Source: Deltaproteobacteria bacterium
Lineage (GTDB): Bacteria; Myxococcota_A; UBA796
Direction: 5' to 3'
Length of the DNA stretch: 40,850 nt
NCBI GenBank assembly: GCA_002683315.1
Contig: NYTD01000068.1
Location: 1-40,850, forward strand
The translations under genes were made by a program, and so were the position numbers. Of this stretch, positions 14,193 through 40,850 are shown one piece after another (position 1 is the first letter of the stretch; each line of letters begins with the position of its first letter). The notes under the pieces were generated by a model that saw only the letters and a program-made list of their open reading frames with translations, was not told where the DNA came from and ran no database searches.

Positions 14193-14678
14193 ATGCGTTG
14201 GTTTCTGGTCGATACAATAGATCAGCTTATTTTGGGTGATTTTGCAGTAGGCACAAAGACCTATGCAGATACAGAACCCTTTTTTCAAGATCACTTTCCA
14301 AATTTTCCAGTGGTTCCCGGTGTTCTTATCATGGAGTCTTTGGCTCAGATATCGGGAAAGCTTATTGGGTATACGGTTCGTACAGATCGTGGAGACTGGC
14401 CTTTTCCCATCCTGAGTATGATGAATCGAGTCAAATTTCGAAAATTCATCCCTCCCAACACCTGCATCACGTTGGAAACAAAGATCAAAGTTCTCAAAGA
14501 TGAAAGCGCGCTTGTTGATGTCCGAGCTAAGGTAGCAGGAAAAGTTCATGCGCAAGCAGAGCAGCTTTTTGTGTTCAATTCGGTGCCATTGGAAGAAGGT
14601 GAGAGTGAAAGATTGGAAGAACTAGAAAGAACCGAACTTCTTCGACTTTGGAAAGATTGTCCGGAGCATCACTCATGA
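14193..14678 (+). CDS. fabZ: FabZ-type 3-hydroxyacyl-ACP dehydratase
   Basis: FFQDHFPNFPVVPGVLIMESLAQ and VKFRKFIPP. GGAG RBS before MRWFLVD (alternative start 14166). Confidence 0.9.
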   Translation: MRWFLVDTIDQLILGDFAVGTKTYADTEPFFQDHFPNFPVVPGVLIMESLAQISGKLIGYTVRTDRGDWPFPILSMMNRVKFRKFIPPNTCITLETKIKVLKDESALVDVRAKVAGKVHAQAEQLFVFNSVPLEEGESERLEELERTELLRLWKDCPEHHS

Positions 14679-16740: not shown

Positions 16741-16760
16741 TTGACGCTATTGGTTGGTGT

Positions 16761-20477: not shown

Positions 20478-20531
20478 TTTTTGATATTGTGTTAAACTCC
20501 AACAACATCAATGATATTGAAGGAGTTTGAT

Positions 20532-20954
20532 ATGACCATTGCACTGGCGACACAAAGTGATGACGTTCAAAAAGATATTTGGGAAAAAGTATCCATAGCA
20601 TTTCAAGAGGCACTTGGACTTGATGAAGACGAAGTAGAGTTTGACATGACGATCATTGAAGATTTGGATGCTGAGTCCCTTGATCTTCTTGATATAACAT
20701 TTCAACTTGAGCGCTCGTTCGATATATCTATACCTCGTGGCGGAATTCAAAAAACAGCACAAGAAGGTGCAGATAATGATGGTTTACAATCGGATGGAAC
20801 CTTGACAGACAACGCCCTGGTTCGTCTTGCCGAAGCGATGCCAGAAATTCCAAAAGAAAAATTTGTACAAGGCTTAAAGCCCAATGATATCCCCAATTTG
20901 TTTGTGGTTGGAACCTTTTATAATCTTGTGGTTCGACTTCTAAACGAAAAATAG
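20532..20954 (+). CDS. Acyl carrier protein with a large C-terminal insertion
   Basis: DLDAESLDLLDITFQLERSFDISIP core with the Ser intact. About 50 extra residues precede LFVVGTFYNLV. AAGGAG RBS before the ATG at 20532. Confidence 0.88.
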   Translation: MTIALATQSDDVQKDIWEKVSIAFQEALGLDEDEVEFDMTIIEDLDAESLDLLDITFQLERSFDISIPRGGIQKTAQEGADNDGLQSDGTLTDNALVRLAEAMPEIPKEKFVQGLKPNDIPNLFVVGTFYNLVVRLLNEK

Positions 20955-21901
20955 TGAAGCGATTCTTATTTTTGGTTCATCCTCTTTCGAACCCACACCG
21001 TACACTTATGTCGCTTCGATGTCGGTTTTGGAAAAGTTTGATTACGGAAACATATACACAAGCAGAGATTGCCACACTATGTCGTTTTCGATGGGAAGAT
21101 ACAATAGAGGGTGTGGTCATGTCGATCCCACTTCTTCCCAATGAGATGATTGAAAACCAAGAGCGCGCTCTTTCTTTATTGCATAGAGCATATCGGATTG
21201 GTCTGGCTAAATACGGGAATATTGATGCCGTGGGGTTGGGATCGTTATGCTCTGTTGTAGCGAGTCGAGGAGTTGAGTTACAAAAGATAATTCCTGTTCC
21301 AGTAACAACGGGTAATGCTGCTACGGCTTGGTGCATGTACGCCCATATACAAAAGAGAAACATATCCGATCCGATCGCTGTATTGGGTTCATTATCTCCT
21401 GTTGGACAGGTGCTTTGTCGTCTATTACATCAAGCGGGATATGAGTTACGTGTCGATAAAAAACGTGCGGCCAAAAAGTATGGTTGGAATCATGGTGAAC
21501 CAGAAGATATTGTACGCGAAGCTTCTTTGGTTATCGGTTGTGGGCCAACTGGACCTGTGTTGGATGGACAAGCATTGCTCCCCAATGCTGAGGTGATTGA
21601 TGTGGCACTTCCTGGAAGTATTCAAGGATTCGTACACAATATGGTCTATCAAGGAGAAGGGATGTCAATGCCTGTCTCATGGAAAAGAGGTTTTTGGGGA
21701 CCCTTGTATCATCTTGTGTCTGGTTATGGGTGGAACACTGTTTTGGCTTGCTTGATTGAGCCCTTGATCGTTGTTTCCTTGGGTCGAAAAGAAGGTTTGG
21801 CATTAGGAAGTAAGATCGATCCGCAGGCCGTTCTTGATTTTGGTGGAGAAGCGAAGCGTCTCGGATTTGAGCCCAAACTTATTGTTCATCGGATGGGATG
21901 A
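20954..21901 (+). CDS. Acyl-ACP reductase-like oxidoreductase (AAR / COG5322 type)
   Basis: N-terminal FLFLVHPL, GLGSLCSVV and VTTGNAATA; Rossmann-like IAVLG; VIDVALP; VLACLIE; C-terminal AKRLGFEP. This matches the motif order of cyanobacterial AAR. Confidence 0.75.
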   Translation: MKRFLFLVHPLSNPHRTLMSLRCRFWKSLITETYTQAEIATLCRFRWEDTIEGVVMSIPLLPNEMIENQERALSLLHRAYRIGLAKYGNIDAVGLGSLCSVVASRGVELQKIIPVPVTTGNAATAWCMYAHIQKRNISDPIAVLGSLSPVGQVLCRLLHQAGYELRVDKKRAAKKYGWNHGEPEDIVREASLVIGCGPTGPVLDGQALLPNAEVIDVALPGSIQGFVHNMVYQGEGMSMPVSWKRGFWGPLYHLVSGYGWNTVLACLIEPLIVVSLGRKEGLALGSKIDPQAVLDFGGEAKRLGFEPKLIVHRMG

Positions 21902-22381
21902 TTACCCAACAAGATAAGTGGCCACACCGCTTGCGATTTGAATATTTTGCTCGTTGTGTAATGCTACGCGAAATACACCTATTTTATTGCCCATTCGTTC
22001 GATTTGTGCACTTGCGGTGAAACATGTTCCTTTTCCCGGGCGAAGAAAGTCGACGTGTAGGTTGACCGTTCCGAGCTTGGAAAATCGTTCGTTGAATTCT
22101 GCAATGGTGCATTCTTGTGTATCGATAAACAAAGAGCGTGCAGCAATAAGGCCACCTACGGTGTCAAGTGCAGAAGAGATCACACCACCATGAAGAATAT
22201 TTTGCATTTGGTTTCCGATAAATTCATCTCTTCTATCAAAAATAAGTTCGGCACGATTGTTTGTTATCTTTCCAATGCGGTAGTGAAAAAGAGTGTTAAA
22301 AGGCAGGACTTCAAGAAATATCTGAGAGATTTTCTCCAATATCTGTGGATTTTTGAGAATTGTTTCGTGTGGTGTGTTCAT
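21902..22381 (-). CDS. PaaI/YigI-family hotdog acyl thioesterase
   Basis: FIGN...ILHGGVISSALDTVGG, LGTVNLHVDFLRPG and IASGVATYLVG. Confidence 0.9.
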   Translation of the reverse strand: MNTPHETILKNPQILEKISQIFLEVLPFNTLFHYRIGKITNNRAELIFDRRDEFIGNQMQNILHGGVISSALDTVGGLIAARSLFIDTQECTIAEFNERFSKLGTVNLHVDFLRPGKGTCFTASAQIERMGNKIGVFRVALHNEQNIQIASGVATYLVG

Positions 22382-25808: not shown

Positions 25809-26390
25809 TTATGATTCTTGTGTGAGTTGACGAGAGAGGAATAATCTACGATCGGTTCGAACCATTCCGTCAGTGCGGCGAGATGAGACCTCTGTGTATA
25901 CGCCCGTATCATCGAAGTTCATAGAGAGATACATTTGATAAGAGCTATCTTTGACCACACTGGTTCGTAAAACAACATCATTATAGGCATCAGTGTCGAT
26001 GAGGTTGATCCTCCACTGCGTAAGAGTGCGACCGATTCCCTTTCTTCTATATAGATCCAAAACCCCCAATTCTGCAAGATAAAATGTGTGTTGAATGGGC
26101 AGAAGTCCTCTAAGTTTACTGGTAATGGATTGTCGACTACGAAGAGGAATAGCAAATGCAAATCCCACGACAGATTCTTTGTTTACCGCAAGAAGAGTAA
26201 TATTTTCAGGGGTGTGGAGGTTTGAGTCAAATATGGCCTCCGCTTCCATGGGATAGAATCGTTCGCTATACGGTGGTTCAGCGAAGATGCTTTGATAGGC
26301 TCCAACAAAGGATGTCCGGTACGGAAGTGCTTCTTCTTTTGTATACAGACGGATGATGTCGATATTGTCGCGTTGTTCAAGCCGATCCAT
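25809..26390 (-). CDS. GNAT family N-acyltransferase
   Basis: VVGFAFA, FYLAELGVLDLYRRKGIGRTL (motif A) and YQMYLSMNF. AAGGAG RBS; 20 nt downstream of the PKS stop. Confidence 0.88.
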   Translation of the reverse strand: MDRLEQRDNIDIIRLYTKEEALPYRTSFVGAYQSIFAEPPYSERFYPMEAEAIFDSNLHTPENITLLAVNKESVVGFAFAIPLRSRQSITSKLRGLLPIQHTFYLAELGVLDLYRRKGIGRTLTQWRINLIDTDAYNDVVLRTSVVKDSSYQMYLSMNFDDTGVYTEVSSRRTDGMVRTDRRLFLSRQLTQES

Positions 26391-26410: not shown

Positions 26411-29400
26411 TTACCCGATTTTACGAAAATGTATACACTCTTTACGTTTGATGTGTGCAAGAGCAAAGCAAAGATGATCTCGATAGGAAAACTTTACTGC
26501 AATTTCAAGATAGCTATATTGTCCAAGATGATTGTATAATGTGACATTTGCCCGAAAAGGGGAGCACATGGTGATTTCAATATCAGTTGTGGCGATGCGA
26601 AGACCAATGCCGAGGAGTTTTGAAACAGCTTCTTTGGCACACCATATGGCTGTAGTCCTATGATGCGTTATCGCTTGTTTTTGTTCATGTAGAGTGAAGC
26701 AGTGTCGAACAAAGCTTATGGGGCGTGGTACAATCTCATCTACATCAAGTCCAATAGGTCCATGGAACGAGAGAGCAGCAAATCCTTTATGATTTGTGTG
26801 TGAAATGCTGATCGCATATTTAGGATGTTTTTCGAGGTATGGTGCACCGAGGGAATTATTAAAAACAGAAGAAGAGGAAAGTCCTTGATTTTGTAAGAGT
26901 TTTGCAACAGCCTTTCTGCCAAGAATTCGATCCTGTCGTCTTTTTTGGGCATGTTGCGTGATTTCAAAAGAACCCAATTCATCAGGAATAGATGCTTCTT
27001 GTGGAACCAATAGGCTTTCAGTCCACCCTTTCTGTGGAATAGGGAGTTTATCTCCATCGGGCAGAGGACCCAAGATAGAAAATTTTAATCCACGTAAACG
27101 AAGAACAACAATATGAGCTGTGTCGATATCGACATGATATCGATCACCCTCTTTATAGACGACAATTTGTAGTGGTTCACCATCTTTTGGTGCTTCAATA
27201 AATTCCAACTCTGCAAATCCAGCGGGTAAACCGACTTGATTACTCTGGCTCATAAGGTGGAGTCCAGCAGCTTGAAAGGCTGCCTCAAGAGCCAAAGGTG
27301 CGGTAGATAAGGGGTTTGGATGGAGCTTGGTGTGATATACTGCTCCTTCACAGCTTAAGAAATCAGTGGACAATTCATAAACCTGATCAAGAACTTGAAA
27401 TGTTGGTCCATGGAAAAATCGCGCGTAGATCTCTTCTTTGGTGAGGATATAATCTGTCCCATATCGTTGTGACAAGTCGCTTGTCTCTGGTTTGGGCATC
27501 AGTTGAACGATCGCCCGAAAGTGCTCTGTTTCCTTGTTTTTTCCATTTGCAAGGATTCGATGACTGTAGAGAGTACAAGAAACCACTCCTTTTCGAACAG
27601 CTTTGGTTCGAACTTCCAAAGAAAGTGTATCAAAGAGTTTTATGGGAGTATCATATTCTACAGAAGATGCACCGCAAAAGCGTGTTCCTGGCCAGATATG
27701 CTTGGCGGCATTTACCATGATTTCAAGACCAATCACACCAGGAAGTACGGGTCGTGTATTGATACAATGATCTTTTAGCCAAGGGGTGTTTTCAAGATTT
27801 AACTCCACAAAACAACGTTGATGATCTCCCCAGAGTTGCACACGATCAATAAACGGCTCGCATGATGGTCGATCAAAATCCCCAAGTTGATCGGTTATGA
27901 TAATCTCATTGCTCCAATTTTCTCGGATGAGGGAGACCATGAGCTCGGCACATGGTTGCGCCTGCAGAAGAAGAATTCCACGCTGTTGCAAAGCAAAGCT
28001 CATTCCTCCCCTTGTAGCCATACCAACTCCATCCCAAGCGCTCCAATCGATATGCAATGCGTTGGGATGTCCAGAGCATAGTCTTGCAAGACCATCATTG
28101 GCTGACGCATAGTCTGCTTGACCGGTATTTCCAAATCGACCCGCAATAGAGCCCATGGATATGAATTTGGTACTTTTGGGAAGAGAATGAAGCAAGTACA
28201 TACCTCCAAGTGCTTTGGGAGTGTATACAGAACGGAACTCTTGGATTGTTTTTTCCGATATGCGTTTGGAGATTTCTATTCCCGCGCCATGAATACAGAT
28301 ATCTATGGTTCCCCACATCTTTGTGATTTTTTGAATTGTTTCAGATACATCACGCTTGTTTCCAACATCTAAAGCGTAAAATACCACATCTGCACCGAGT
28401 TCTTGTATGTCTTCGATTGTTCTTCTGGCCTCTTCGGCACGCATAAATGGAGCCATGTGCTCTCGAATGATTGCGGGCGTAACATGTTCATTTTTTTCTT
28501 TTAGGAGAGTCTTTATGTTCTCCTTCTCTTTGTCAATATCTAATGGAGATTGTGCTGGAGGAGTGCGTGACAACAGTGCAATTCGAACATTTGAGTAGCG
28601 AGCAAAGGCACGGGCTATTTCAGAACACACCCCACGAGTTCCACCAGTAATCACAATTGTTTTGGTCTCTGTAGATTTTTCTGTGGGCAGAGGTGGTATA
28701 GGCTGAAGCTGAATCTCGGTTCGAGAGCGAAGTCCATCACTCCAAAAAACTTCTTGCGTAGGCTCAGATGTTTGGAGCTCCTCTAGTATGTGTTCGCATT
28801 TTTGTTGAATGGTATATTGCGGAGATAGATCAACAACACGAATTTGTGTGTTTTCCCACTCTCGGCTTAGTGTTTTACACAGTCCGGCTCTGGAACCTGA
28901 TTCCAAACGAGTTTGGGGTGCAACGTTATGCGGTGTCGTCCCGATTGAGGTTATACACATCCAAAATTTGGGTTGTATTCCATGCTGCGCTGTTAAGAAT
29001 CCAGCTTCTGGATTGGAGCTAAGATCGATGACTAAATCTGGATTGGATGATTCTATCATGCCGTATGAAGTCAGTGTCTTTGTGAGCATGTCGACAAGCT
29101 GACCGTTACCTATGATGGCAAAGGAGGAGAATTTATTGGAATATCCCTTTTGAATGGGGTGTGGAATTCGCACGACACTATATATTTGTGTTGTTGTTGG
29201 TAGGTCATGCTGTATATAAGATCGGACAGGTTCTTTTGATGCCGATTCTGTAATGAGGTCTTTGGATATCGGCTGTGTAAGTTCTTCTGTGCTGGAAAGA
29301 TGCGAAGATAATGAACGTCTTTTATTTTTTCTGGGAACAAGGAGAGATTCGGTGACGGAAGAGATTGTATCTGTTGATTCTGTTATGACTGAATCAGTGA

Positions 29401-32400
29401 TTTCTAGGTCAAGGTTTTGCAGGGGAATGTCATTTTCTTGTACCACAGAAGAATGATGATCTGGTGTTGTTTGTTGGACTTCAGGCTTTGCTTTTTCCAG
29501 TGATGCAGTATGGGGATTTTCTTCAAACCAAGAACAAAGAGCACGAATGGTTGGAACTTCTGTAAGAACCAAATCGGTCTGTGTTGGAATTTGAAAGATA
29601 TCGCGTAATGTGGAAAAGATTTCCGCTTGTTTTACAGTATCAATTCCTAGGTCTGCCTCTAGTTCATAGTCCAACTCAAGATCTTGTCGATCATATCCAG
29701 TGGTTTGTGCGATACAATCCAAGACTTGATCTTGGATTGATTTTGTAGGAGTCTTCATGGAGATACTGTCTTTTATTTCTACTTGCGGCAAAGAAGAGAT
29801 CTGTGTTTGTTGATTTGGAATCAGTCGTAAAACGTGATCTTGTACTTTAAGAGTTGCGGGGTGATCGTACAGTGAAGAAAACCATTGTTTTTGACGGTCG
29901 GTATCAAAGCATCGATTCGACGGTGCATCTTGCGGAACGATGGTTTTCCATAGTAAGAAAGCAATTTGAGAGCCAAAACCCGCAGCAAGTCGTAGTGCAT
30001 ATGTTCCGGTGAATGTTCCTCCTTTTGAAAGAGAGATGTTTCCAAGTTCAGGATCAACTTCCTTGTAATTGGGGATGGGGGGAACTGTTCGGTGCTCCAA
30101 TGCTTTTACAGCCAAAACATCTTCAATACCTGCTCCCATAGAATGCCCAGTAGCTCCTTTGCTGTTGCAAATAAGGATTTGATCGATGTTTGATCCAAAT
30201 GTTTGTCGCAATCCTTTTATTTCTGCGGAGGCAGATCCTCCTCGTGCTGGAGTATAGGTTTCATGTGAAACGAAGAGCGTCTTTGAAGCAATATCTGAAG
30301 GAGTGGTATTATTTTTTGTACAGGTCTTTTCTACAAATTCCTGTAGTGCGTCTGCAATGTCATCTTCATTTAGGCGCGTACCGTGGAATGCACTATTGGA
30401 AAAGTGTGATCCAAGAAGTTCAGCTATGGGATATTGTCCTCTTTGTTCTACATCGATGCGTCGTTCTAGAACCATTCCAACAGCACCCATACCCAAAATC
30501 ATTCCATTTCTTCGTTTGTCAAACGGAAGGGCTGCTTCTTCTACATCTGATTTGGTTGTCGCTGCACCGACGCTCAAAAATCCTGCACCAATCCACTCAA
30601 ACATTTCTTCATTGGTCACATCATCAGCTGCAATGACAATGACACGTTCAGCTCTTTGGGTTTGGAGCCAATCTTGTGCGATGGCGATGGCTTGGGTTGT
30701 TGAAGCACATGCCGCATTTACGTAGGTGTTGGGACCTTTTGCACCAATATATTGTGCAAATTGTGTATGTCCCATGCTTAATATCTGAAACAAAAACTTG
30801 CGGTTGAATTCTTTTGGTGGCGTTTTGATACTGGCTATGAGGTTGCTATATCCAGGAAAGGCACTGGCAAAAATAATGCCCGTTCCTTTTTGTAGATTTT
30901 GGGGGAGTATCCAACCGTCTTGAATGGACGTCCCTTTTCTATATCGAGGGACGAGTGGTATGCGCGCATCTGTTAATGCTTCTAGTCCCGCAGCAAATGC
31001 TAGCTTTGTAGTGATATCAAATGTTTGAAGAAGTTCTTCTGGGATATCGTAATCACGGAGTGAGAAGTATGATTTTTGTCCAGCCAGTTGGATGACTTTT
31101 TCTGTGTCTGAAACATGTTCAAACCCTCCTTGGCCCGTCTGCGCATTTTTGCTGACGCGAACGATATTTTTGTTTAGGAATCGTTTTTTTGCTTCTTCCG
31201 TAATGGAGGAAATACGATTTTCTCCTCGAAGCAGTGCATCGATATTATCTGTCGAGAAGACAGAAGTTCCACCTGGCAATCCAACGGATGCTCCGGAGCA
31301 AACAACTTGGATCCTCTGTGGAAGTTGAGTGGATTGTGTGATGGGTTGGGGCTGGAGGGGGTTTTTTACGTCCTTTTGTGTGATGGCATGTAATAAGGAT
31401 TCAAATCGTTGATCTAAAATTTGGTTGAGCTCTTGTTTGGTTACACTGTGCTTTTCGATCGGCTTTATGAGTGGATTTTCAGCCAAAGGAGAGTCCTTCT
31501 GTATAAAAGACTTTCCTTTTATGGCACGGAAACCAGCAATACATTGCATGAAGGATCGTTGTTCACCTGTTTTGGGGTGATTCGTATTTAAGATGTAATG
31601 ATGTCGTTTTTTTAGAATGTTGCTGACAAGGCCGGTTAATACACGTTGAGGACCACATTCTACAAATACTCGCGCCCCTGCATCATACATCGTCTCAATT
31701 TGTGTGATCCATTCAACAGGATGTGTGACTTGTGCAGTAAGTGTATCGATGATGGAGTTTGGGTCAGTAGAAAGCCAAGATCCTGTCACGTTGGTTGTCA
31801 TGGGTATTTGAGGGATAGAAATGGTCCGCTTTTCAAGAACTTTACGCAATGGCTCTGTCGCAGGTGCTACGATCTTAGAGTGGAATGCATGACTCACAGG
31901 AAGAACCTTACATCGAAATCCTTTTTCCTTACACATTTTAAGTATAGATTGAACTCCAGCACTTGAACCGGCAATTACTGTTTGGTTGGGACTATTGTTG
32001 TTGGCGGCGATGACATAGTCTTCTGATTTTTCCAGCAGCGGAGTCAAAGCTTCCGCCTGCGCAAAGATTCCAGCCATCATTCCAGGATCATCAAGGTGAA
32101 TATTTGCCATTTCGCGACCACGAACAGTGACAGAGATAAGTGCATCTTCAAAGCTCATCACTCCCGCTGCAACTGCTGCTGCATATTCTCCAAGAGAATG
32201 CCCCGCAACCATATCTGGCTCTATCCCATGTTCTTTGAGCAGGCGAAATAACGCGATATCCATGCACAATGTGGCAGGTTGTGCAATTTTTGTATCCGAG
32301 AGCATGGAAAACTGCTCTTGTGAAGAGAGAGAAGGATCGGAATAGATATAATCAATAAATGGTTTGTCAAGTTGCCCTTCTAGAAAAGTGTTGGCTTGGT

Positions 32401-35020
32401 CAAAAGTCTTTTTGACAATAGGAAATAGGTCACATAGCTCTTTTCCCATGTCCAGATATTGGCTTCCTTGACCGGTAAATAAAAAAGCTACTTTTCCTGC
32501 TGGTTTTCTTCGGTCGATAACATATATGCCTCTTCCTCGAAGCAGTGCAGGATTCTTGTTGGATGTATGTGTTTTTTGTATGCGAACAGATTGCTCTGTA
32601 TATTCAGCAAGATTTTGGGCATATGCGCAGGTAATCCATGTGTCGGATGAAGCCACGCTCCAATCACGAAGATTGATTTTTCGAACAAGATCTGAAAAAG
32701 AAGCGCCTCCCACCGACCAAATATTTGGAAATTTTGATTCTGTAGAAGAAAGTGTCTTGGTGTCATGTTGAGTAGGCGTATTCTCTTTTGGTACAGAGCT
32801 CATACAAAGATGAAAATTGGTTCCTCCAAACCCAAAAGCACTGACTCCAGCTCTTCGTATAGATGAAGACCAATCTTCTGTTTGGGTTTGAATTTTGATA
32901 GGCCCTAATTCGATATCGGTTCTTGGTGTTGTGTAATTGGCTGTTGGAGGGAATTTTTTATGATAGATGGCCAATGCTGTTTTGATGACACTTGCCGCAG
33001 CTGCCGCACTTTTTAGGTGTCCAATATTGGATTTGACCGAACCTACTCGAAGAGGAGTTGTGCGATTCGATGGCTGGATATCTCGAAGAGTTTCCAATTC
33101 TACTTGATCTCCAACGATTGTGCTGGTTCCATGGCATTCTACAAGCTCAATACTTCCAGCTTCAATATTGGAAGCTGCATAGGCTCGCTCCAAGGCATAT
33201 CGTTGTCCAATTGGATTGGGCGCTGTTATTCCTTTTCCTTTTCCATCACTGGAAGCACCCATACCATCGATGACGGCATAGATTTTATCGCCATCACGCT
33301 GAGCATCGCGTAATCTCTTCAAGATGAGAATGCCACAGCCTTCGCCCATCACAAATCCATTGGCCCGCTGATCAAATGGAGAGGAATGGGTCGGAGAGAG
33401 TGCTCCGATTTTACTAAATTTAACATAGGTTGGAATTCCCATGCTATGATCAGATCCACCTGTTACGACCATATCGAATTCTCTGTCTCGTAATCCTTTT
33501 ATTGAGGCTTGAATGGCGGCCATAGATGATGCACATGCTGCATCAAGAGTATAATTTGGACCGTTAAAATTGAACGCGTTGGCTACTCTTCCAGCAATAA
33601 CGTTGGAGAGTTCTCCTGGCATAGAATCTGAATTCAGCTTGGGTAGTGTCTCTTTGATCTGCGTACGAACTCTTGCGATCATTGCATCGCGATCTTGGCT
33701 GGAGAGAGATTGAATGACAGGGTCGCGTAAAAATGCTTGTTCAAACTCAGGAAGTCTCGTTCTCAATGTATAGTCTTGAGAGACCTCTCCTCCCATAGAA
33801 TTGCCCAAGATTACAGCCGTTCGTGAACGGTCAAAATCTCGGTCATGATACCGTGCATCAGCAAGAGCATCTTCTGTACTGGCAAGTGTAAGTTGTTGGA
33901 CGAGATCTACTTGCTGGAGTACGAATGGGGGGATTCGAAACGGTTTTGGGTCGAATGTAAAAGAACGAATGAAGCCACCAACTTTGGAATATGTTTTGTC
34001 TTCTTTTTGAGGGTCTGGATCCCAAAAAAGACTTGAATCCCATCGGTTTGTTGGTACTTCGATAATAGAAGATTTTTGATTGATGATATTGTTCCAGAAA
34101 TCTTGTGGATTATTTGCATCGGGAAAACGACACCCCATACCGATGATCGCGATTGGTTCTTGGTGTGTAGAAGAAGGGGAAGCGGTAGTTGAAATAATCG
34201 CGATTGGTTCTTTTTTAAATTCTGGAGGCTTTGTGATTTTTTTAGGAGAAGGATTCTTTGGCTCTACCAATGTACTTGGATCACCTTTGTAGGCTCTTAG
34301 AAGATGTGCGATGGAAGGATAATGTTTGGCTATATCAGGAGCATGAAGAATGGATGAGCCAAAAGGCGCAGGGCAGGTGGCAGGATCTGATTTTTGAAAC
34401 CATTCTGTACAGGTCTTCCACCAATTTTTTTCGAGAGCGATCGTCTCTATGCCTGCTGAAAGTGCGGGAGCAAAGATAGATACATTTTTGTGTCTTTGGC
34501 AAAGAGAAGGATCTTGTTTTTCTATCAGTTTTTTCCATGCTGTAGGAAGGAGCATTTCGGGCAGAGCCATGAGATATTCATGGAGTATAATCCCTTCGAT
34601 ATTATTGTTCTCTACTTTGTCCATGTCGGTAGGTAGCAATGCACAATCCAACATGATTCTTTGATCAGGTGTCCGTTTGCTCAACCGATCCCATATGTCT
34701 GTGTTACCCGCTTGTCCTCCGACATTTGGACCGCGAAGAATAATTCCGGCAAATCCTTTTGGTGTTTTTTTGTATCGAGAGGTTTCAAGCCATGTGTCGC
34801 GATTTCGAATGGGTAGCTTGTGATTTTCCCCAGCGAGAATTACGGGGCCTTTGCCCGGTACAGCTCTACGTACTCTTGTGCGTACCCAAGCACCAGCTGG
34901 AATGGCGACCCGATCTCCAAGAGATATATCAATAACGGGAATCCCTCCTGCCTTTACAACATTTGAGGCTAGGTTACTACGTGCAGAGGGTAAGAAACAA
35001 AGGATTTGTGGTGTGGACAT
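26411..35020 (-). CDS. Type I PKS/FAS megasynthase: degenerate FMN-barrel(ER-like)-KS-AT-KS-ACP(Thr)-KR-DH-PPTase
   Basis: KS1 DAAC496ASS, ECHGTST, NIGHLK. AT GHS942LG, VSHAFHS. KS2 NAAC1438AST, VSHETYT, TGHSMG. Carrier ADLGIDT1795VKQ. KR ITGGTRG, GQADYASAN. DH LKDHCINTRPVLPG, HGPTFQ. PPTase GAP...ISISHT, IGLDVD, WCAKEA. Confidence 0.92.
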   Translation of the reverse strand: MSTPQILCFLPSARSNLASNVVKAGGIPVIDISLGDRVAIPAGAWVRTRVRRAVPGKGPVILAGENHKLPIRNRDTWLETSRYKKTPKGFAGIILRGPNVGGQAGNTDIWDRLSKRTPDQRIMLDCALLPTDMDKVENNNIEGIILHEYLMALPEMLLPTAWKKLIEKQDPSLCQRHKNVSIFAPALSAGIETIALEKNWWKTCTEWFQKSDPATCPAPFGSSILHAPDIAKHYPSIAHLLRAYKGDPSTLVEPKNPSPKKITKPPEFKKEPIAIISTTASPSSTHQEPIAIIGMGCRFPDANNPQDFWNNIINQKSSIIEVPTNRWDSSLFWDPDPQKEDKTYSKVGGFIRSFTFDPKPFRIPPFVLQQVDLVQQLTLASTEDALADARYHDRDFDRSRTAVILGNSMGGEVSQDYTLRTRLPEFEQAFLRDPVIQSLSSQDRDAMIARVRTQIKETLPKLNSDSMPGELSNVIAGRVANAFNFNGPNYTLDAACASSMAAIQASIKGLRDREFDMVVTGGSDHSMGIPTYVKFSKIGALSPTHSSPFDQRANGFVMGEGCGILILKRLRDAQRDGDKIYAVIDGMGASSDGKGKGITAPNPIGQRYALERAYAASNIEAGSIELVECHGTSTIVGDQVELETLRDIQPSNRTTPLRVGSVKSNIGHLKSAAAAASVIKTALAIYHKKFPPTANYTTPRTDIELGPIKIQTQTEDWSSSIRRAGVSAFGFGGTNFHLCMSSVPKENTPTQHDTKTLSSTESKFPNIWSVGGASFSDLVRKINLRDWSVASSDTWITCAYAQNLAEYTEQSVRIQKTHTSNKNPALLRGRGIYVIDRRKPAGKVAFLFTGQGSQYLDMGKELCDLFPIVKKTFDQANTFLEGQLDKPFIDYIYSDPSLSSQEQFSMLSDTKIAQPATLCMDIALFRLLKEHGIEPDMVAGHSLGEYAAAVAAGVMSFEDALISVTVRGREMANIHLDDPGMMAGIFAQAEALTPLLEKSEDYVIAANNNSPNQTVIAGSSAGVQSILKMCKEKGFRCKVLPVSHAFHSKIVAPATEPLRKVLEKRTISIPQIPMTTNVTGSWLSTDPNSIIDTLTAQVTHPVEWITQIETMYDAGARVFVECGPQRVLTGLVSNILKKRHHYILNTNHPKTGEQRSFMQCIAGFRAIKGKSFIQKDSPLAENPLIKPIEKHSVTKQELNQILDQRFESLLHAITQKDVKNPLQPQPITQSTQLPQRIQVVCSGASVGLPGGTSVFSTDNIDALLRGENRISSITEEAKKRFLNKNIVRVSKNAQTGQGGFEHVSDTEKVIQLAGQKSYFSLRDYDIPEELLQTFDITTKLAFAAGLEALTDARIPLVPRYRKGTSIQDGWILPQNLQKGTGIIFASAFPGYSNLIASIKTPPKEFNRKFLFQILSMGHTQFAQYIGAKGPNTYVNAACASTTQAIAIAQDWLQTQRAERVIVIAADDVTNEEMFEWIGAGFLSVGAATTKSDVEEAALPFDKRRNGMILGMGAVGMVLERRIDVEQRGQYPIAELLGSHFSNSAFHGTRLNEDDIADALQEFVEKTCTKNNTTPSDIASKTLFVSHETYTPARGGSASAEIKGLRQTFGSNIDQILICNSKGATGHSMGAGIEDVLAVKALEHRTVPPIPNYKEVDPELGNISLSKGGTFTGTYALRLAAGFGSQIAFLLWKTIVPQDAPSNRCFDTDRQKQWFSSLYDHPATLKVQDHVLRLIPNQQTQISSLPQVEIKDSISMKTPTKSIQDQVLDCIAQTTGYDRQDLELDYELEADLGIDTVKQAEIFSTLRDIFQIPTQTDLVLTEVPTIRALCSWFEENPHTASLEKAKPEVQQTTPDHHSSVVQENDIPLQNLDLEITDSVITESTDTISSVTESLLVPRKNKRRSLSSHLSSTEELTQPISKDLITESASKEPVRSYIQHDLPTTTQIYSVVRIPHPIQKGYSNKFSSFAIIGNGQLVDMLTKTLTSYGMIESSNPDLVIDLSSNPEAGFLTAQHGIQPKFWMCITSIGTTPHNVAPQTRLESGSRAGLCKTLSREWENTQIRVVDLSPQYTIQQKCEHILEELQTSEPTQEVFWSDGLRSRTEIQLQPIPPLPTEKSTETKTIVITGGTRGVCSEIARAFARYSNVRIALLSRTPPAQSPLDIDKEKENIKTLLKEKNEHVTPAIIREHMAPFMRAEEARRTIEDIQELGADVVFYALDVGNKRDVSETIQKITKMWGTIDICIHGAGIEISKRISEKTIQEFRSVYTPKALGGMYLLHSLPKSTKFISMGSIAGRFGNTGQADYASANDGLARLCSGHPNALHIDWSAWDGVGMATRGGMSFALQQRGILLLQAQPCAELMVSLIRENWSNEIIITDQLGDFDRPSCEPFIDRVQLWGDHQRCFVELNLENTPWLKDHCINTRPVLPGVIGLEIMVNAAKHIWPGTRFCGASSVEYDTPIKLFDTLSLEVRTKAVRKGVVSCTLYSHRILANGKNKETEHFRAIVQLMPKPETSDLSQRYGTDYILTKEEIYARFFHGPTFQVLDQVYELSTDFLSCEGAVYHTKLHPNPLSTAPLALEAAFQAAGLHLMSQSNQVGLPAGFAELEFIEAPKDGEPLQIVVYKEGDRYHVDIDTAHIVVLRLRGLKFSILGPLPDGDKLPIPQKGWTESLLVPQEASIPDELGSFEITQHAQKRRQDRILGRKAVAKLLQNQGLSSSSVFNNSLGAPYLEKHPKYAISISHTNHKGFAALSFHGPIGLDVDEIVPRPISFVRHCFTLHEQKQAITHHRTTAIWCAKEAVSKLLGIGLRIATTDIEITMCSPFRANVTLYNHLGQYSYLEIAVKFSYRDHLCFALAHIKRKECIHFRKIG

Positions 35021-35107
35021 CTCATACCTTTGGTGTGGATGGTTCTGTGCAAATGTGTGCCAAACACTGGATTTTTGAATAGATCAGATCACAGAAGGGA
35101 GATCCAG

Positions 35108-36337
35108 ATGAATTGTGAACATAAGGACAAGCCTCATGTGTATATAAAAGAAAACAAGATTGTCGTTCAAAAGGACGATCAAGTTATTTCTATTAACCTA
35201 TCTGATGCGCAAATGCTTGTTCAAGAAATCATCGAAGCGAACCAAATTTTACATAAGATGGAAGAAAAAAAGAAAAGTCGTATAGAAGAATTTCGTGTAC
35301 GACTAAAAAAATGTTCCTCGGGTATCATAACGTCTGATCGAATGTCACATATTCTCCGATGGAATGACCGATTCTTACACAAGGCTTCGGTCAATATTTT
35401 GGCTTCTTGTTTCTCTCTAGATGATGATGGGTGGGCTGTGGTGATTCCAGAATTGACACGATATGGTCGTGTGGGTTTATTTTTTGCAATATCTACCCAC
35501 GAAGATCAAGATATCGTCTCTGAATTGTGGAATTGGGGAGCTTTTGATGAAATTCTCTGCTCCACATTGTGGGATCTTCCTTCTACGCAGATCCCACAAA
35601 CCTTTCAGACGAGGCTTGTTCCTTTTGTGTCTCAAGAATGCTTTATTCCTGCAGGAGATTTTATGATGGGCTCTGAAGGAATGGAAGCCTTACCTTGCGA
35701 ATATCCAAAGAGAAAGATTACGCAATCGCGTGATATATACATGACACGATTTCCCATGACCCAATTGCAATACTGGTCTTTGACCGATCAAGAGCCATCT
35801 CATTTTCAAGGAGCGTTGAGGCCCGTGGATTCGATCTCTTGGTTGGATGCCGTACAAGCTTGTAATCTTTATTCGTTGGCAATGGGGTACAAGCCAGCAT
35901 ATCGCATAGAAAAAGAAGGAGCTGTTCTTTGGGATCAAAGTGCAAATGGGTATAGGCTTCCTACAGAAGCGGAGTGGGAATCTGCAGCACGTGCGGATCA
36001 AGATTGTTATTTCTCTGGAAGTGATGACCCATGCAAGGTGGCCTGGTTTTCAGATAATGCAACGGAAACAAAGCGTGTAGGAGCTAAAGAACCCAACTCT
36101 GCACACCTGTATGATATGACTGGAAATGTGTGGGAGTGGGTCTTTGATGCATATGATGAAGAAGCATACAGAAAGACTCCTACGATAGATCCGGTTGTAG
36201 AAGAAGGAACATACCGAGTATGTCGTGGTGGAGCATTTACCAGCTCCGCAGAGAGTTCTCGAATCAGTATTCGTGGAGCATATGAACCAGATGAGCGTAA
36301 TTGGGCGGTAGGATTTCGGATGGTTCGTTTTGCCTAA
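35108..36337 (+). CDS. FGE-sulfatase (SUMF1-like) domain protein without the FGE catalytic cysteines
   Basis: IPAGDFMMGS, MTQLQY, RPVDSISWLDA, YRLPTEAEWESAAR, LYDMTGNVWEW, RVCRGG and VGFR. GGGAG RBS before the ATG at 35108. Confidence 0.88.
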   Translation: MNCEHKDKPHVYIKENKIVVQKDDQVISINLSDAQMLVQEIIEANQILHKMEEKKKSRIEEFRVRLKKCSSGIITSDRMSHILRWNDRFLHKASVNILASCFSLDDDGWAVVIPELTRYGRVGLFFAISTHEDQDIVSELWNWGAFDEILCSTLWDLPSTQIPQTFQTRLVPFVSQECFIPAGDFMMGSEGMEALPCEYPKRKITQSRDIYMTRFPMTQLQYWSLTDQEPSHFQGALRPVDSISWLDAVQACNLYSLAMGYKPAYRIEKEGAVLWDQSANGYRLPTEAEWESAARADQDCYFSGSDDPCKVAWFSDNATETKRVGAKEPNSAHLYDMTGNVWEWVFDAYDEEAYRKTPTIDPVVEEGTYRVCRGGAFTSSAESSRISIRGAYEPDERNWAVGFRMVRFA

Positions 36338-36338
36338 T

Positions 36339-37763
36339 TCACCATGGTGAAGGAGTACCTGTAATACCTTTCCGGACTTTTTTTCCTAGTATACGTATAT
36401 CGGGGTGTAGTACTTGATCATCGCTCCAAAATTGCACCTGATCTCTAATTTGAGCATGGATCTTTGCAATGCGAGGCGGAAGAGGAAGATGATCTGTTTG
36501 CATCCGTAGATCCAATGCTTGTGCAGCGAGTAAAAGTTCGATGGCGACAATGTCTGCGAGGCATTCTAGTATTTCTAAGGTATGTCTTGCGGATATGGGA
36601 GCCATGGAAACATGATCTTCATGATGCTGAACGGTTGGAATTGAATCGACACTCGCTGGCATTGTAAGACCTTTGCATTCCGAAGCAAGTGCAGCCGCAG
36701 TGTATTGTGCAAGCATAAATCCAGAATTTAGTCCTGTACCTTGTACCAAAAAACTGGGTAGATCTTTGGATAGTTTTTCATGTGTGAGGCGAAACGTACG
36801 TCGTTCAGAGAGAGTTGCAAGTTGGGTTAGAGCGATCTTAAGATGATCAAGAGCGAGTGCGATTTGTGTACCGTGAAAATGTCCCGCTTCGATCCACTCT
36901 CCATCAATGAGTAAAGGATTATCAGAACAGCCATTGAGTTCTTGTTCCATAATTTTTTTTGTGTGGTTGATGGCGAGTAATGTTGATCCCATGACAGATG
37001 GTCCACATCGTATGGAGAAGGCATCTGGTTTTCGCTGTGGACCGACACGTTCAGAGTCTTGAAGTAAAGCCCGCAGTTGAGCTCCTATTTCTATACACTC
37101 TGGATGTCCTCTTAGGGTTAATGCTTTTTTATGGATGCACTGATTTTGCGCATAAATAGCCTCCATGGTCATTGATGCAGCAATAATGGCGGCGTCTAAA
37201 ACTTTTTGTGCACGCACAACAGCAATCGATCCTAGAGCAGTACTTAGTGATACGCCATTGATAAGAGAAAGACACTCTTTGGCCGTGGGCTCAAGAGGAG
37301 TAAAAGTATCAGGGTGAGCTATATACCCACATACCACTGCTGCAATATGTGCCATGGGAGCCAGATCTCCTGCTGCTCCAACACTACCTTGTGATGGAAC
37401 ATCGGGAATATCATTGTTGTTGATTAATTCCAATATTTTTTGTGCAGCAATCGGCCTAGAACCAGTGAATCCTGAAGCCAAGACGTTGATCCTTGCAGCC
37501 ATTGCGGCTCGAACATACTCTTTGGGCAAGAGTTCACCAACACCTGCACAGTGCCCGAGGATGAATTCCTTTTTTAGGTTTTCACTTTGGGTCTGTTCTT
37601 CTCCAAGTAGCCATGCTCTTTTGCTTTCGAGAATGGTAGACGGAGTGTGTAGCGCATTTTCTTCCATCTTTTGAAGAGAGGATTTTGCGATAGAGCATGG
37701 TTCTCCATGTGCGATGCGATGTAAAATATCACATGTCAGACTGGTTCCATCAATAAGATTCAT
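36339..37763 (-). CDS. Aromatic amino acid ammonia-lyase paralog lacking MIO serine (probable pseudoenzyme)
   Basis: HCAGVG, GSVGAAGDLAP (AAG rather than ASG), LINGV, PDAFSIRC, SDNPL, GLNSGFM and HEDHVSM. The YGVNTGFG loop is absent. Confidence 0.85.
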   Translation of the reverse strand: MNLIDGTSLTCDILHRIAHGEPCSIAKSSLQKMEENALHTPSTILESKRAWLLGEEQTQSENLKKEFILGHCAGVGELLPKEYVRAAMAARINVLASGFTGSRPIAAQKILELINNNDIPDVPSQGSVGAAGDLAPMAHIAAVVCGYIAHPDTFTPLEPTAKECLSLINGVSLSTALGSIAVVRAQKVLDAAIIAASMTMEAIYAQNQCIHKKALTLRGHPECIEIGAQLRALLQDSERVGPQRKPDAFSIRCGPSVMGSTLLAINHTKKIMEQELNGCSDNPLLIDGEWIEAGHFHGTQIALALDHLKIALTQLATLSERRTFRLTHEKLSKDLPSFLVQGTGLNSGFMLAQYTAAALASECKGLTMPASVDSIPTVQHHEDHVSMAPISARHTLEILECLADIVAIELLLAAQALDLRMQTDHLPLPPRIAKIHAQIRDQVQFWSDDQVLHPDIRILGKKVRKGITGTPSPW

Positions 37764-39298
37764 GAAGACTCCTCTGTGGAGATGGCAAAAGCTCCTTTTT
37801 GTACTTGATTGGCAATATGTTCGATTTGATGTGCGATTAAAGTATTGGACGATTGCTCAAACAGGATATCGTGTACCATTTGGTATCCTTTTTTTGTACC
37901 CTTTCCCAGTTTGTGCTTGGGGTTTTTATCGATTCGGTACGATAATGCATGGCCTGCGGTCAATAGCTCGATCGCAATCACACGACGAGCATTGTCAAAC
38001 ACTTTCCGACAACGTCGTGCGGCCACGGTACTCATGGCAATATGATCTTCTTGATCTTCACACGTGGGAATAGAATCTACACTCGCCGGCCAAGCCAGAG
38101 ATTTATTTTCGGAAACCAGTGCAGCGGCTGTGGTTTGTGGAACCATCATTCCCAATGCAGGCTTGTCTTTTCCAACCAAGCCAGGAGGCAGTCTTTGTGA
38201 AAGATTCCCTGTAGTGAGGCGGTATAATCGACGTTCTGATATTGAGGCAAGTTCGCAAATGGCTATTTTTAGACTATCGATAGCCATGCCGATTGGTTCC
38301 CCATGAAACATACCCGCACTAAATGCTTTGTTTTCATCGGGTTCTTCGAGTAAGATCAGTGGATTGTCTGTGGCAGCATTAAGCTCAATCGATATCTGCG
38401 AAGAGACAAAGTCATACATATCTCGTACAGAGCCCAAAACTTGAGGGGTGCATCGTAGACTGTATGCGTCTTGTACTTTTTCAGGGACAGAGTCGATAAG
38501 TGTAGAGCCTTGAATGTGATTGCGAATTTGTCTCGCACATTCTATCGCTCCACGATAGGGTCGAAGCTTATGCACAGAGGCATGAAAGGCACGAGAAACA
38601 CCCAAAAGAGCTTCGATACTCATGGAAGCAGCAAGTTCGGCACTTTTTATAAGAGAACGTACGTCTTCGCACAGTAACGCCGCGAGGGCTGTCGAGAGTT
38701 GAGCTCCATTTGTGATGGCAAGTCCATCTTTTGCTTCAAGTAGAATCGGTTCAAGGCCTATTTTTTTCAGTGCTTCTGGTGCAGAGATCTTTTCTCCATG
38801 TACAATCGCTTCTCCAAGTGGATCTCCGATCAGAACCAATCCAAGATGTGCCAGAGGAGCAAGATCACCAGAAGATCCACAGCTCCCTTGCATGGGGATC
38901 ACTGGAAGAAGATTATGATTGAGAAATGCGATCAGATACTCCACCAATAGAGGTCGACAACCGCTGACTCCTTTTGACAGAGCATTGGCACGTAGTAGCA
39001 TCATTGCACGCGTGACATCTGGTGGAGCAATGGGTCCGACACCAGCCGCATGAGAACGAATAAGATTTCTTGAAAGGAGTGAAGACTGTTCTGGAGGAAT
39101 GCGCAATCGTGCCAACGAACCAAATCCTGTGTTTACCCCATAGATTGCACGATCACCCAAAGAAGCATCACGTACCCACATATAGCTGTTTTGCATATTT
39201 TCACGAGCCTGTGAGCTTAAGGCAACTTCTTTATTTTGTCGTGCAACAGCGACAACATCTTCGATGGTCAATGTGTTGCCGGTTAGGTACAATGGCAT
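37760..39298 (-). CDS. hutH: Histidine ammonia-lyase
   Basis: AIYGVNTGFG, LIRSHAAGVG (SH specificity pair of HAL), GSCGSSGDLAPL, QDAYSLRC, TDNPL and QEDH. Confidence 0.8.
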   Translation of the reverse strand: MPLYLTGNTLTIEDVVAVARQNKEVALSSQARENMQNSYMWVRDASLGDRAIYGVNTGFGSLARLRIPPEQSSLLSRNLIRSHAAGVGPIAPPDVTRAMMLLRANALSKGVSGCRPLLVEYLIAFLNHNLLPVIPMQGSCGSSGDLAPLAHLGLVLIGDPLGEAIVHGEKISAPEALKKIGLEPILLEAKDGLAITNGAQLSTALAALLCEDVRSLIKSAELAASMSIEALLGVSRAFHASVHKLRPYRGAIECARQIRNHIQGSTLIDSVPEKVQDAYSLRCTPQVLGSVRDMYDFVSSQISIELNAATDNPLILLEEPDENKAFSAGMFHGEPIGMAIDSLKIAICELASISERRLYRLTTGNLSQRLPPGLVGKDKPALGMMVPQTTAAALVSENKSLAWPASVDSIPTCEDQEDHIAMSTVAARRCRKVFDNARRVIAIELLTAGHALSYRIDKNPKHKLGKGTKKGYQMVHDILFEQSSNTLIAHQIEHIANQVQKGAFAISTEESS

Positions 39299-39380
39299 AT
39301 GTGGTTCCTCTAGAGGAAATTATCATACAACTTGTCTCTTTTCAAGGCATCTCTTTTATGTATCTTTGGGTTCTCTGATC

Positions 39381-40850
39381 ATGATTCTTCCATTCGTCTT
39401 TTATTCTTGTACACCCGATCTCCCGGAAAAATATACCAAAGAAGAGGTTGTATCAACGAAAATAAATATTTTGCTCGTTACCATTGATACGCTTCGTGCT
39501 GATCGTGTCGGTGCGTATGGGGATACAAAAGCACAAACAAAAACAATTGATCTGCTTGCGCAAAAAGGAGTTTTATTTCGAGAAGCACATAGTCTATCTC
39601 CACTCACTCTCCCATCCCATTCTTCTATTTTAACAGGATTATACCCTAAAGAACATGGAGTACGTGATAATGCTGGTTTTGTTCTTCCCAATAAGATCCA
39701 CACAATCGCAGAAGCATTGAAAACAGGTGGATATGAGACATCAGCGTTCGTTTCAGCTTTTGTATTGGAACATTCTTGGGGATTGTCACAAGGATTCGAT
39801 CGATACCATGATCCATTTCATCCAAAAGATCTCTCTAAAGTTTCAGCACTTGGAGAAGCTCAGATTCCTTCATCAGATACCATCAATGCAGCACAAGCGT
39901 GGTGGAAAAAAACAAAAGGTCCCAAATTCTCATGGGTTCATTTGTACGATCCACATACGCCTTGGGAGACCAAAACGGGAGATCCATATCGAGGAGATAT
40001 TGCACAAGCAGATCAGAATCTTGCACGGTTGATCGCGCAAACAGATTCTTCCGATTTGATCATCATTACCTCTGATCATGGAGAAAGTTTATGGGAGCAC
40101 GGTGAGCGAGAGCACGGAGTTCTTCTTCATAGATCAGTGACACGAGTCCCTTTGATTATTCGTCCTCCGGGGACAATAAACGGGGTTACAGAACCACCTC
40201 CAAGAAATTCTATTTTGGAGGTCCAACGACCAGAAGGGGTTGATCCTCGTTTGATTCTAGAACCTGTCAAAGATGCTCCAAAAGCTGGTTATGTTGTGGA
40301 TGATGTGGTTCGTCTTATCGATATCGCACCGACAATAGCAGACTATGCGGATGTACCCTTTTCTGCTTCTGGATTATCGTTACGTCCTTTTATAGAAGGT
40401 AAGTCACAGCCTTCTCGTATCGCGTATGCCGAGACTCTATTTCCCTACTACCATTTGGGTTGGTCATTTATGACAATGGTGCAAAATGCTCAAAGGCGTG
40501 TTGAAAAAGGTATTGATACTCGAGCAATGCTATGGAAAAGTGCACAAAAAACATTACCGACATCTGTGTTACTTAATGAGATGGACATGAGGTTCGGTTC
40601 CGATATACCTATACCAGGGGCTGTAACAAGTGCTCAGCAAGAAGCGTTACAAACGTTGGGGTATATGTCAGGAACGGAGACGATTAAGCAGGACATGGAT
40701 CCTCGTGACCACATTCATGTCTTATCCGATCTTTTCCAAGCTCAAGAACTTCCTCACGAACAGGCTATTCCTGCTCTAATTGACTTGATAAACAAGTATC
40801 CCAACATGATTCATGCATACACAGCTTTGACATTACATTATGTACAAGCA
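39381..40850 (+). CDS. Partial (3'-truncated) sulfatase-like hydrolase of the alkaline phosphatase superfamily, putative lipoprotein
   Basis: Read directly from the DNA because it is absent from the ORF track (no stop in window). MILPFVFYSC, ILLVTIDTLRADRVGAYG, PLTLPSHSSILTGLYP, WVHLYDPH, TSDHGE, RVPLII, DIAPTI and LQTLGY. Confidence 0.88.
   Translation, partial: MILPFVFYSCTPDLPEKYTKEEVVSTKINILLVTIDTLRADRVGAYGDTKAQTKTIDLLAQKGVLFREAHSLSPLTLPSHSSILTGLYPKEHGVRDNAGFVLPNKIHTIAEALKTGGYETSAFVSAFVLEHSWGLSQGFDRYHDPFHPKDLSKVSALGEAQIPSSDTINAAQAWWKKTKGPKFSWVHLYDPHTPWETKTGDPYRGDIAQADQNLARLIAQTDSSDLIIITSDHGESLWEHGEREHGVLLHRSVTRVPLIIRPPGTINGVTEPPPRNSILEVQRPEGVDPRLILEPVKDAPKAGYVVDDVVRLIDIAPTIADYADVPFSASGLSLRPFIEGKSQPSRIAYAETLFPYYHLGWSFMTMVQNAQRRVEKGIDTRAMLWKSAQKTLPTSVLLNEMDMRFGSDIPIPGAVTSAQQEALQTLGYMSGTETIKQDMDPRDHIHVLSDLFQAQELPHEQAIPALIDLINKYPNMIHAYTALTLHYVQA

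Follow-up and report, generated by a model that had tools for sequence, protein, structure and literature searches.

A two-ketosynthase, PfaA-related megasynthase from a marine Myxococcota contig and the threonine at the carrier site of its family

Enediyne polyketide synthases (PKSE) are single polypeptides of the order KS-AT-ACP-KR-DH-PPTase, with one ketosynthase (KS), an acyltransferase (AT), an acyl carrier protein (ACP), a ketoreductase (KR), a dehydratase (DH), and a phosphopantetheinyl transferase (PPTase); they prime themselves, work iteratively, and have neither an enoyl reductase (ER) nor a thioesterase (TE). In the synthases that make polyunsaturated fatty acids (PUFAs), two KS domains are described as sharing the elongation cycles by chain length (PMC11962503). 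The layout termed Type R was described by Shulse and Allen (2011, PLoS One 6:e20146, PMC3098273) as a single pfaA homologue reading KS-MAT-CLF-ACP(3–6)-KR, where CLF is a chain-length factor, followed by a PPTase gene. The Type R hosts given there are Koribacter, Solibacter, Elusimicrobium, and Roseiflexus, the product is uncharacterised, and the types of that paper were defined on a KS tree. An uncharacterised PUFA-like KS has been reported from Heimdallarchaeota (PMC7472256, 2020), and according to a 2025 preprint (10.1101/2025.10.24.682833), the secondary lipids identified amount to only a handful. Here, we examine a megasynthase gene at positions 26411–35020 of contig NYTD01000068.1 from a Deltaproteobacteria bacterium; the window analysed is the entire contig (40850 bases, ~43% G+C), and it belongs to a genome bin of 3.55 Mb that is 59% complete.

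As judged from its sequence, the gene is a reduced marine Myxococcota subtype of a catalogued, uncharacterised family. It probably encodes a Type R-like, PfaA-related iterative type I synthase of fatty acids or polyketides (a "secondary lipid" synthase) in which two KS domains divide the cycles between them. The layout as such was catalogued in 2011; what sets the gene apart is a threonine at the carrier site throughout the family, which is the new finding, together with an invariant, odd motif in the second KS (KS2). A preliminary description of this DNA had proposed an uncharacterised, iterative, self-contained synthase with two catalytically intact KSs, a proposal that we uphold. The gene, its domains, and the gene that follows it are as follows.

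26411–35020, minus strand: whole synthase gene, a single unbroken open reading frame (ORF) of 2869 amino acids plus stop (ORF list, translation, Pfam)
34271–35020, minus strand: N-terminal domain resembling FabK and nitronate monooxygenase (NMO), thus ER-like, residues 1–250 (predicted-structure match, profile alignment)
32735–34159, minus strand: first KS (KS1, PKS/PfaA-type) with the KS-AT linker, residues 288–762 (Pfam, CurL alignment, tree)
31607–32485, minus strand: acyltransferase, residues 846–1138 (Pfam, TIGR00128, GHSLGE and HAFH motifs)
29921–31333, minus strand: KS2, a divergent FabF-like KS, residues ~1230–1700, signature SHETYTPARGGS (Pfam, TIGR03150, FabF structures, tree)
29528–29731, minus strand: single carrier (PP-binding), residues 1764–1831 (Pfam; the sole ACP match by phmmer)
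29636–29638, minus strand: codon ACT for Thr1795, at the phosphopantetheine-site position (DNA and alignment to solved ACPs)
28031–28660, minus strand: ketoreductase, residues 2121–2330 (Pfam KR, motifs)
27071–27826, minus strand: PKS-type dehydratase, residues 2399–2650 (Pfam PKS_DH_N and PS-DH)
26414–26962, minus strand: fused Sfp-type PPTase, residues 2687–2869 (Pfam ACPS, predicted fold, invariant residues)
25809–26390, minus strand: GNAT-family gene of 193 amino acids, 20 nt downstream of the synthase stop (Pfam Acetyltransf_1, 1.1e-5)

Every point that the preliminary description had observed in the protein was confirmed. Its domain order of ER-like, KS1, AT, KS2, ACP, KR, DH, and PPTase is borne out by Pfam and structure matches, the Pfam search of the whole protein placing KS1 at residues 288–696, the KS-AT linker at 699–762, a second ketoacyl-synt match, and ACPS at 2755–2836; its "no TE" also stands, with no thioesterase family among the 15 Pfam matches listed. 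KS1 and AT form an ordinary type I didomain whose nearest solved relative is the CurL KS-AT (PDB 4mz0, E 1.7e-123), with which the KS1 catalytic residues C496, H630, and H668 align. Alignment to the CurL and FabF structures shows the Cys-His-His set that had been read in both KSs, and the motif VSHETYTPARGG that had been seen replacing EAHGTGT in KS2 is present, SHETYTP starting at residue 1585. The AT matches FabD (TIGR00128) at 1.3e-68 and carries GHSLGE at 940 and, as described before, the malonyl-type HAFH at 1044, both aligning with the CurL AT. The KR (Pfam 6.3e-25) has GGTRGV at 2126 and YASAN at 2304, and in the DH, His2418 lies within HCINTRPVLPG.

The window gene resembles Type R in being pfaA-like, with a second KS-like domain between AT and carrier, then a KR and a PPTase of its own. 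It differs in having one carrier as against 3–6 in tandem, a PPTase fused at the C-terminus rather than encoded by a separate downstream gene, and an extra FabK-like domain at the N-terminus; moreover, the second domain is labelled CLF in the paper, though KS2 of the window keeps Cys-His-His. The earlier reading, by which a second KS placed between AT and ACP was without known precedent, is not supported, as Type R has its CLF-labelled domain there (PMC3098273); on a DH and on a carrier Thr the main text of that paper is silent. Homologues from Chloroflexota and Acidobacteriota have the exact Type R layout and belong to the families of the named Type R hosts. In our KS tree, whose family members come from sources other than the five named strains, the window KS1 groups (SH-aLRT, a likelihood-ratio branch support, 84) with Chloroflexota, Acidobacteriota, and archaeal KS1 domains of Type R layout. 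Starting from a Korobacteraceae KS2, a search yielded 120 Acidobacteriota fragments, with no named type strain among them.

The KS1-AT and KR-DH parts are PfaA-like, and PfaA (TIGR02813) is the top NCBIfam model for the whole protein at 814.2 bits, under its cut-off of 1010.1. PUFA synthases share with it the use of two KS domains in an iterative system (PMC11962503), but the window gene has no FabA-type dehydratase/isomerase domains, its locus lacks separate PfaB, PfaC, and PfaD genes, and its KS2 is FabF-like, being neither the KS nor the CLF of PfaC. Canonical PfaA-like carriers of related genomes have Ser, whereas the two-KS family has Thr. With PKSE, compared here by its general architecture, the gene shares the order ACP-KR-DH-PPTase and the lack of a TE, and it differs in its second KS and its N-terminal FabK-like domain. 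Of the 154 NCBIfam matches, the 25 best, which were those listed, include no enediyne family, and no enediyne cassette genes were seen among the window neighbours.

An unexpected residue lies in the carrier, which scores 26.2 bits against PF00550 (cut-off 20.8) and reads EADLGIDTVKQAEIF. Thr1795, a detail absent from the preliminary description, aligns exactly on the phosphopantetheine-bearing Ser of PigH (5y08) and of mitochondrial ACPs. We counted carriers by a strict motif, DLGxD?[LIVM][KR]. The 120 best homologues have Thr at 387 carrier sites and Ser at 3; per protein, 116 have Thr only, three have both, and one is motif-less. Across 80 genome loci the counts are 216 Thr and 3 Ser, with four carriers lacking the motif, and a second, Acidobacteriota-centred set gave 299 Thr and no Ser in 95 of its 120 proteins, the other 25 being motif-less fragments. 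As a control, the canonical PfaA-like synthases of four related genomes read LGIDSIKRVE, with Ser in 10 of 10 carriers.

The Thr codons of the 80 loci are ACC (109), ACG (76), ACT (19), and ACA (12). The three Ser carriers in the loci (AGC, AGC, and TCC) are all an extra carrier between AT and KS2; they come from three related loci (L033, L035, and L058), a subclade that mixes one Ser carrier with Thr carriers. Because Thr holds across the family counts, it is not a private mutation of the window gene; by these counts, the carrier Thr is under selection across four synonymous codons and many phyla.

The fused PPTase is the natural candidate to act on this residue. It scores 35.3 bits against Pfam ACPS (PF01648, cut-off 25) and in sequence resembles solved PPTases only marginally. 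Its predicted model (mean predicted local distance difference test, pLDDT, 84.9) matches Sfp with coenzyme A and carrier (4mrt_A, E 7e-11, Foldseek), and likewise AASDHPPT and PptT, and 31 family sequences agree without exception at its Asp, Glu, Lys, Trp, and His positions. We consider it an even call whether the family attaches 4'-phosphopantetheine to Thr itself, with a dedicated PPTase that would have co-evolved to prime Thr-carriers which housekeeping PPTases would ignore. This would be the most economical account, because a family held by such strong purifying selection must have a product and the chemistry of type I synthases depends on a thiol arm, and a Thr-adapted PPTase would explain why most complete loci have a PPTase fused to the synthase or next to it. 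A further adaptation of this unusual machinery may lie in the strictly conserved KS2 motif SHETYTPARGGS.

The alternative is that the Thr-carrier stays unprimed, either because the carrier-like domains are structural and a Ser-type carrier serves in trans or because the family has a role other than synthesis. In its favour, an E. coli ACP S36T mutant cannot receive 4'-phosphopantetheine (PMC3340395), and we found no report of Thr phosphopantetheinylation in the literature searched, which lay mostly outside the subscription journals; the words "threonine" and "serine" each occur 0 times in the main text of Shulse and Allen (2011), whose supplements may hold alignments. A stand-alone Ser-type ACP is also encoded 5.5 kb away in the window, at 20511–20954. 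That ACP is, however, not conserved next to the synthase in relatives, and the family has tandem arrays of 2–5 carriers, as PUFA synthases do. With the Thr kept by selection through four synonymous codons in many phyla, and with a PPTase of intact catalytic residues fused to or directly after the synthase in most complete loci, we regard an unprimed carrier as unlikely.

KS2 is the second distinctive element. Taken alone (residues 1191–1700), it matches both halves of the KS fold in Pfam (ketoacyl-synt N-terminal half 8.4e-16, C-terminal half 1.7e-6), and its nearest family is FabF (TIGR03150, E 2e-39), at 135.4 bits against a cut-off of 493.75. Its nearest solved relatives are FabF enzymes (2gqd, E 5.5e-24, and 1j3n), with whose catalytic Cys, His, Lys, and His the residues C1438, H1586, K1621, and H1626 align. 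The Cys, the first His, the Glu that follows, the Lys, and the second His are invariant in all 120 best homologues. Beside the first catalytic His, the motif SHET(Y/F)TPA(R/K/Q)GGS is kept in the same 120 of 120, and its signature SHETYTPARGGS was found in every one of the 120 proteins of the second, Acidobacteriota-centred set. KS2 thus has the FabF catalytic set, but it reads HETYTPARGGS where FabF has HGTSTPVGD, lies on a very long branch, and is part of a megasynthase.

We placed both KSs in a quick maximum-likelihood tree (LG+G4) of 62 KS domains, comprising KS1 and KS2 of 23 family members, FabF-like genes, E. coli FabF, and, from the canonical Pfa clusters of related genomes, PfaA-like KS, PfaC-like KS, and two PfaC CLF domains. 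KS1 groups with the clade of PfaA and PfaC KS domains (SH-aLRT 98–99). KS2 forms a clade of its own (100) with a stem length of 2.03, on the FabF side (98) and apart from the PfaC CLF, its exact attachment being unsure because long-branch effects were warned of. The KS1 and KS2 subtrees have identical internal groupings, so that the two domains have travelled together since the origin of the family. On these comparisons, KS2 is best described as a very divergent FabF-like KS, not a CLF.

In FabF-type enzymes, it is the Cys-His-His-Lys set that carries out decarboxylative Claisen condensation. Head-to-head, non-decarboxylating condensing enzymes, OleA among them, work with another set of catalytic residues, and a CLF is defined as a KS-like fold without the active-site cysteine. 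Two other roles for KS2 have to be set against this background. The preliminary description had suggested that KS2 condenses two chains or releases the product. The lack of a TE domain speaks for such a role, as do the strictly conserved SHETYTPARGGS beside the first catalytic His and the additional carrier that 77 of 120 proteins have between AT and KS2, with which KS2 could in principle take chains off two carriers. The window protein, however, has one carrier only, KS2 falls on the FabF side of the tree, and its decarboxylation-type set, intact in 120 of 120 homologues, argues against chain joining, release, and a CLF-like role alike; PUFA synthases provide a precedent for two elongating KSs (PMC11962503). 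We therefore do not retain the suggestion of joining or release, which appears quite improbable.

The other role, that of a non-catalytic, CLF-like partner of KS1, has behind it the label given to the corresponding domain by Shulse and Allen (PMC3098273) and the existence of KS/CLF pairs in PfaC and in type II polyketide synthases. It is decidedly doubtful: a CLF loses the active-site Cys, whereas KS2 keeps the Cys, both His, and the Lys in all 120 homologues, and the tree separates it from the two PfaC CLF domains of related genomes. A second decarboxylating, elongating KS fits the conserved residues of KS2 better than chain joining or release.

The 285 N-terminal amino acids gave no match in Pfam or NCBIfam searches. 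Their predicted model (AlphaFold, from a 26-sequence alignment; pLDDT 90.5) found FabK enoyl-ACP reductases, FabX, and nitronate monooxygenases as top PDB matches in Foldseek (9pl0_B, E 1.4e-6, template-modelling score 0.61), and the profile of this region aligned at 97% probability (hhalign) with the NMO-bearing N-termini of archaeal homologues, on which Pfam NMO reaches 77.5 bits. Pfam NMO was matched by 3 of the 26 N-terminal relatives, weakly (best E 0.012). The earlier label "ER-like" is thus right as to the fold. At the motifs by which FabK is recognised (EAGGH, AGGI, and GT, each with its role in the enzyme), the domain departs from FabK: the window reads NVGGQ where FabK has ESGGH (canonical EAGGH), the family consensus lacks the His, and in the profile alignment the Gly-rich stretches aligned with AGGI and GT are replaced. 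Modelling thus indicates a FabK/NMO-like TIM-barrel fold without the canonical EAGGH motif.

One polypeptide therefore bears all domains for reductive chain building. In the working that we propose, the fused PPTase would prime the synthase's own Thr-carrier, and the AT would load malonyl units. KS1 and KS2 would both elongate by decarboxylation, splitting the cycles by chain length or type of intermediate in the manner of the PUFA-synthase KSs, while the KR and DH would process each beta-keto group. Enoyl reduction may be absent, giving a polyene-like or hydroxy chain, or may be supplied otherwise. Because the synthase has no TE, the chain would leave through a partner, for which the enzyme of the downstream GNAT gene is the leading candidate. 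The product is most likely a long-chain specialised lipid.

The GNAT gene is the only recurrent neighbour of the synthase. In 16 of the 50 loci that leave at least 700 nt of downstream room, a homologue of 42–63% identity comes after the synthase, at a gap of 20–209 nt in 14 of them and with a split synthase frame in 2 more; all 16 belong to the 20 Myxococcota-type loci that have such room. Enzymes of the GNAT fold can hand acyl chains over to amines or prime chains through decarboxylation, and each of these roles would suit a synthase that lacks a TE.

Several points weigh against reading the gene as a Type R-like synthase that works in this way. The likeness to Type R is to the layout as described in the paper, and no biochemical study of the family was found in the literature searched. 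The KS tree was a quick one in which KS2 has a very long stem and long-branch attraction was warned of. As the protein and locus sets may overlap, their carrier counts are not additive, and with E. coli ACP S36T unmodifiable (PMC3340395), the priming of Thr-carriers is something that we infer. The ER-like domain has neither the EAGGH His nor Gly-rich stretches at the places aligned with AGGI and GT of FabK. The GNAT gene is missing from 4 of the 20 Myxococcota-type loci and from all other clades, and its product is generic, with a top NCBIfam match of 23 bits.

The Type R-like layout itself is found widely. In a search with the KS2 region, 8000 candidates were scored and 4020 proteins reached E <= 1e-3, of which the best 120 are all multidomain synthases of 1865–3781 amino acids with the same Pfam set, from sources that include Myxococcota, Deltaproteobacteria, Heimdallarchaeota, Thorarchaeota, Bathyarchaeia, and Zixibacteria. 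In species-representative genomes, at least 558 of at least 600 pattern stretches were confirmed, and our locus set is the best 80 of the confirmed ones; it comprises metagenome-assembled genomes (MAGs) of Myxococcota (the nearest at 62% identity), Bradymonadales, Heimdallarchaeota, and Thermoplasmatota, and also Chloroflexota, Acidobacteriota, Calditrichota, Verrucomicrobiia, and Actinomycetota. Within the order to which the window belongs, 32 of 41 genomes, its own bin included, have a KS2 match at E <= 1e-100.

Layouts differ by clade. In Chloroflexota and Acidobacteriota loci the order is KS1-AT-KS2-ACP(3–5)-KR-DH, and the PPTase comes next in an ORF of its own; in Myxococcota loci a single ORF encodes N-KS1-AT-(ACP)-KS2-ACP(1–4)-KR-DH-PPT; and archaeal loci have a long, NMO-bearing N-terminus and a fused PPTase. 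The extra carrier between AT and KS2, seen in 77 of the 120 best homologues and in most of those of the Myxococcota type, is absent from the window protein; the layout of the latter, with no carrier at that place and a single one after KS2, occurs in 6 of the 120, itself included. The two-KS synthase with Thr carriers was also seen in nine archaeal loci from MAGs of Heimdallarchaeota and Thermoplasmatota (L046, L054, L057, L062, L071, L082, L083, L099, and L103). Archaeal and bacterial KS2 share ~50% identity, and the archaeal KS1 and KS2 form matching subclades in the tree, which points to transfer between the domains of life. In L036, L040, L078, and L087 the synthase frame is split into at least two ORFs, which may reflect frameshifts, real splits, or assembly errors; that of L087 is broken into many pieces.

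This recurrence also bears on the integrity of the window. Reads were covered through assembled Logan contigs from four runs of marine or seawater metagenomes at low depth, only one of which holds most of the gene; no joints or indels were seen in them, and no RNA run holding the gene was listed. That assembly joined two genes into a chimera with two KSs, an alternative named in the preliminary description, can be rejected with near certainty: the window is a low-coverage metagenome contig, and position 31361 in the AT-KS2 linker is unbridged among the Logan contig pieces listed, but its domain order is shared by the 120 best homologues, from many independent assemblies, and by 80 loci in MAGs of many phyla, of which some lie on contigs several Mb long, and the subtree of KS1 is congruent with that of KS2.

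Upstream in coordinate terms, window positions 14166–22381 hold a type II, aryl-polyene-like lipid cluster with the following genes.

14166–14678: FabA-like dehydratase
14648–15889: FabF-like KS, scoring 308 bits against E. coli FabF; its short KS-like partner is at 15880–16740
16629–18566: Ser/Thr kinase
18523–19752: second KS of the cluster, with its own short partner at 19752–20477
20511–20954: stand-alone Ser-type ACP
20954–21901: protein like the N-terminal part of PigE
21902–22381, minus strand: 4HBT thioesterase, at the end of the cluster

We considered this cluster, or its 4HBT thioesterase, as a functional partner of the synthase and rejected it, as none of its genes recurs beside the synthase in 11 relatives or 80 loci; many KS matches in that neighbour survey were the synthase's own KS domains. 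Two tandem genes for aromatic amino acid lyases of the histidine-ammonia-lyase type lie at 36339–39298 on the minus strand, one passing the HutH cut-off (540 vs 539 bits) and the other being a shorter paralogue below it. Only 4 of 11 relatives and 3 of 80 loci have such a pair near the synthase; we take this as synteny and reject the pair as a supplier of starter units. An FGE-sulfatase-domain protein is encoded at 35006–36337 on the plus strand, and a sulfatase at 39264–40850 on the plus strand. The TTG start of the former ORF overlaps the start region of the synthase by 15 nt, divergently, so that one of the two starts is probably further in.

The wider genome context yielded no further partner. 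PfaD-family genes occur in 37 of 41 related genomes, on other contigs and adjoining canonical Pfa clusters. PfaD as an ER acting in trans was rejected as a candidate: the copies in related genomes lie on other contigs, and none was found in the window's 59%-complete bin. Queries with E. coli FabD, AcpP, and PlsX found no match outside the window in its own bin, and FabH and FabG were matched; with a bin of this completeness, the absence of the first three is uninformative as to whether the synthase is the sole fatty-acid synthase of the cell.

The two-KS layout is among the most widespread megasynthase families that lack a known product. Its hosts range over soil Acidobacteriota, Chloroflexota, marine Myxococcota, and Asgard archaea, and a handle on its chemistry would annotate thousands of genes. 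If Thr is not primed, the family must work outside all current models of type I synthases. If Thr is primed, carrier and PPTase would be a natural orthogonal pair and the first case of Thr-linked phosphopantetheine, as far as the literature searched shows; the textbook rule for carrier proteins would change, and synthase engineering would gain an orthogonal pair for tagging and priming.

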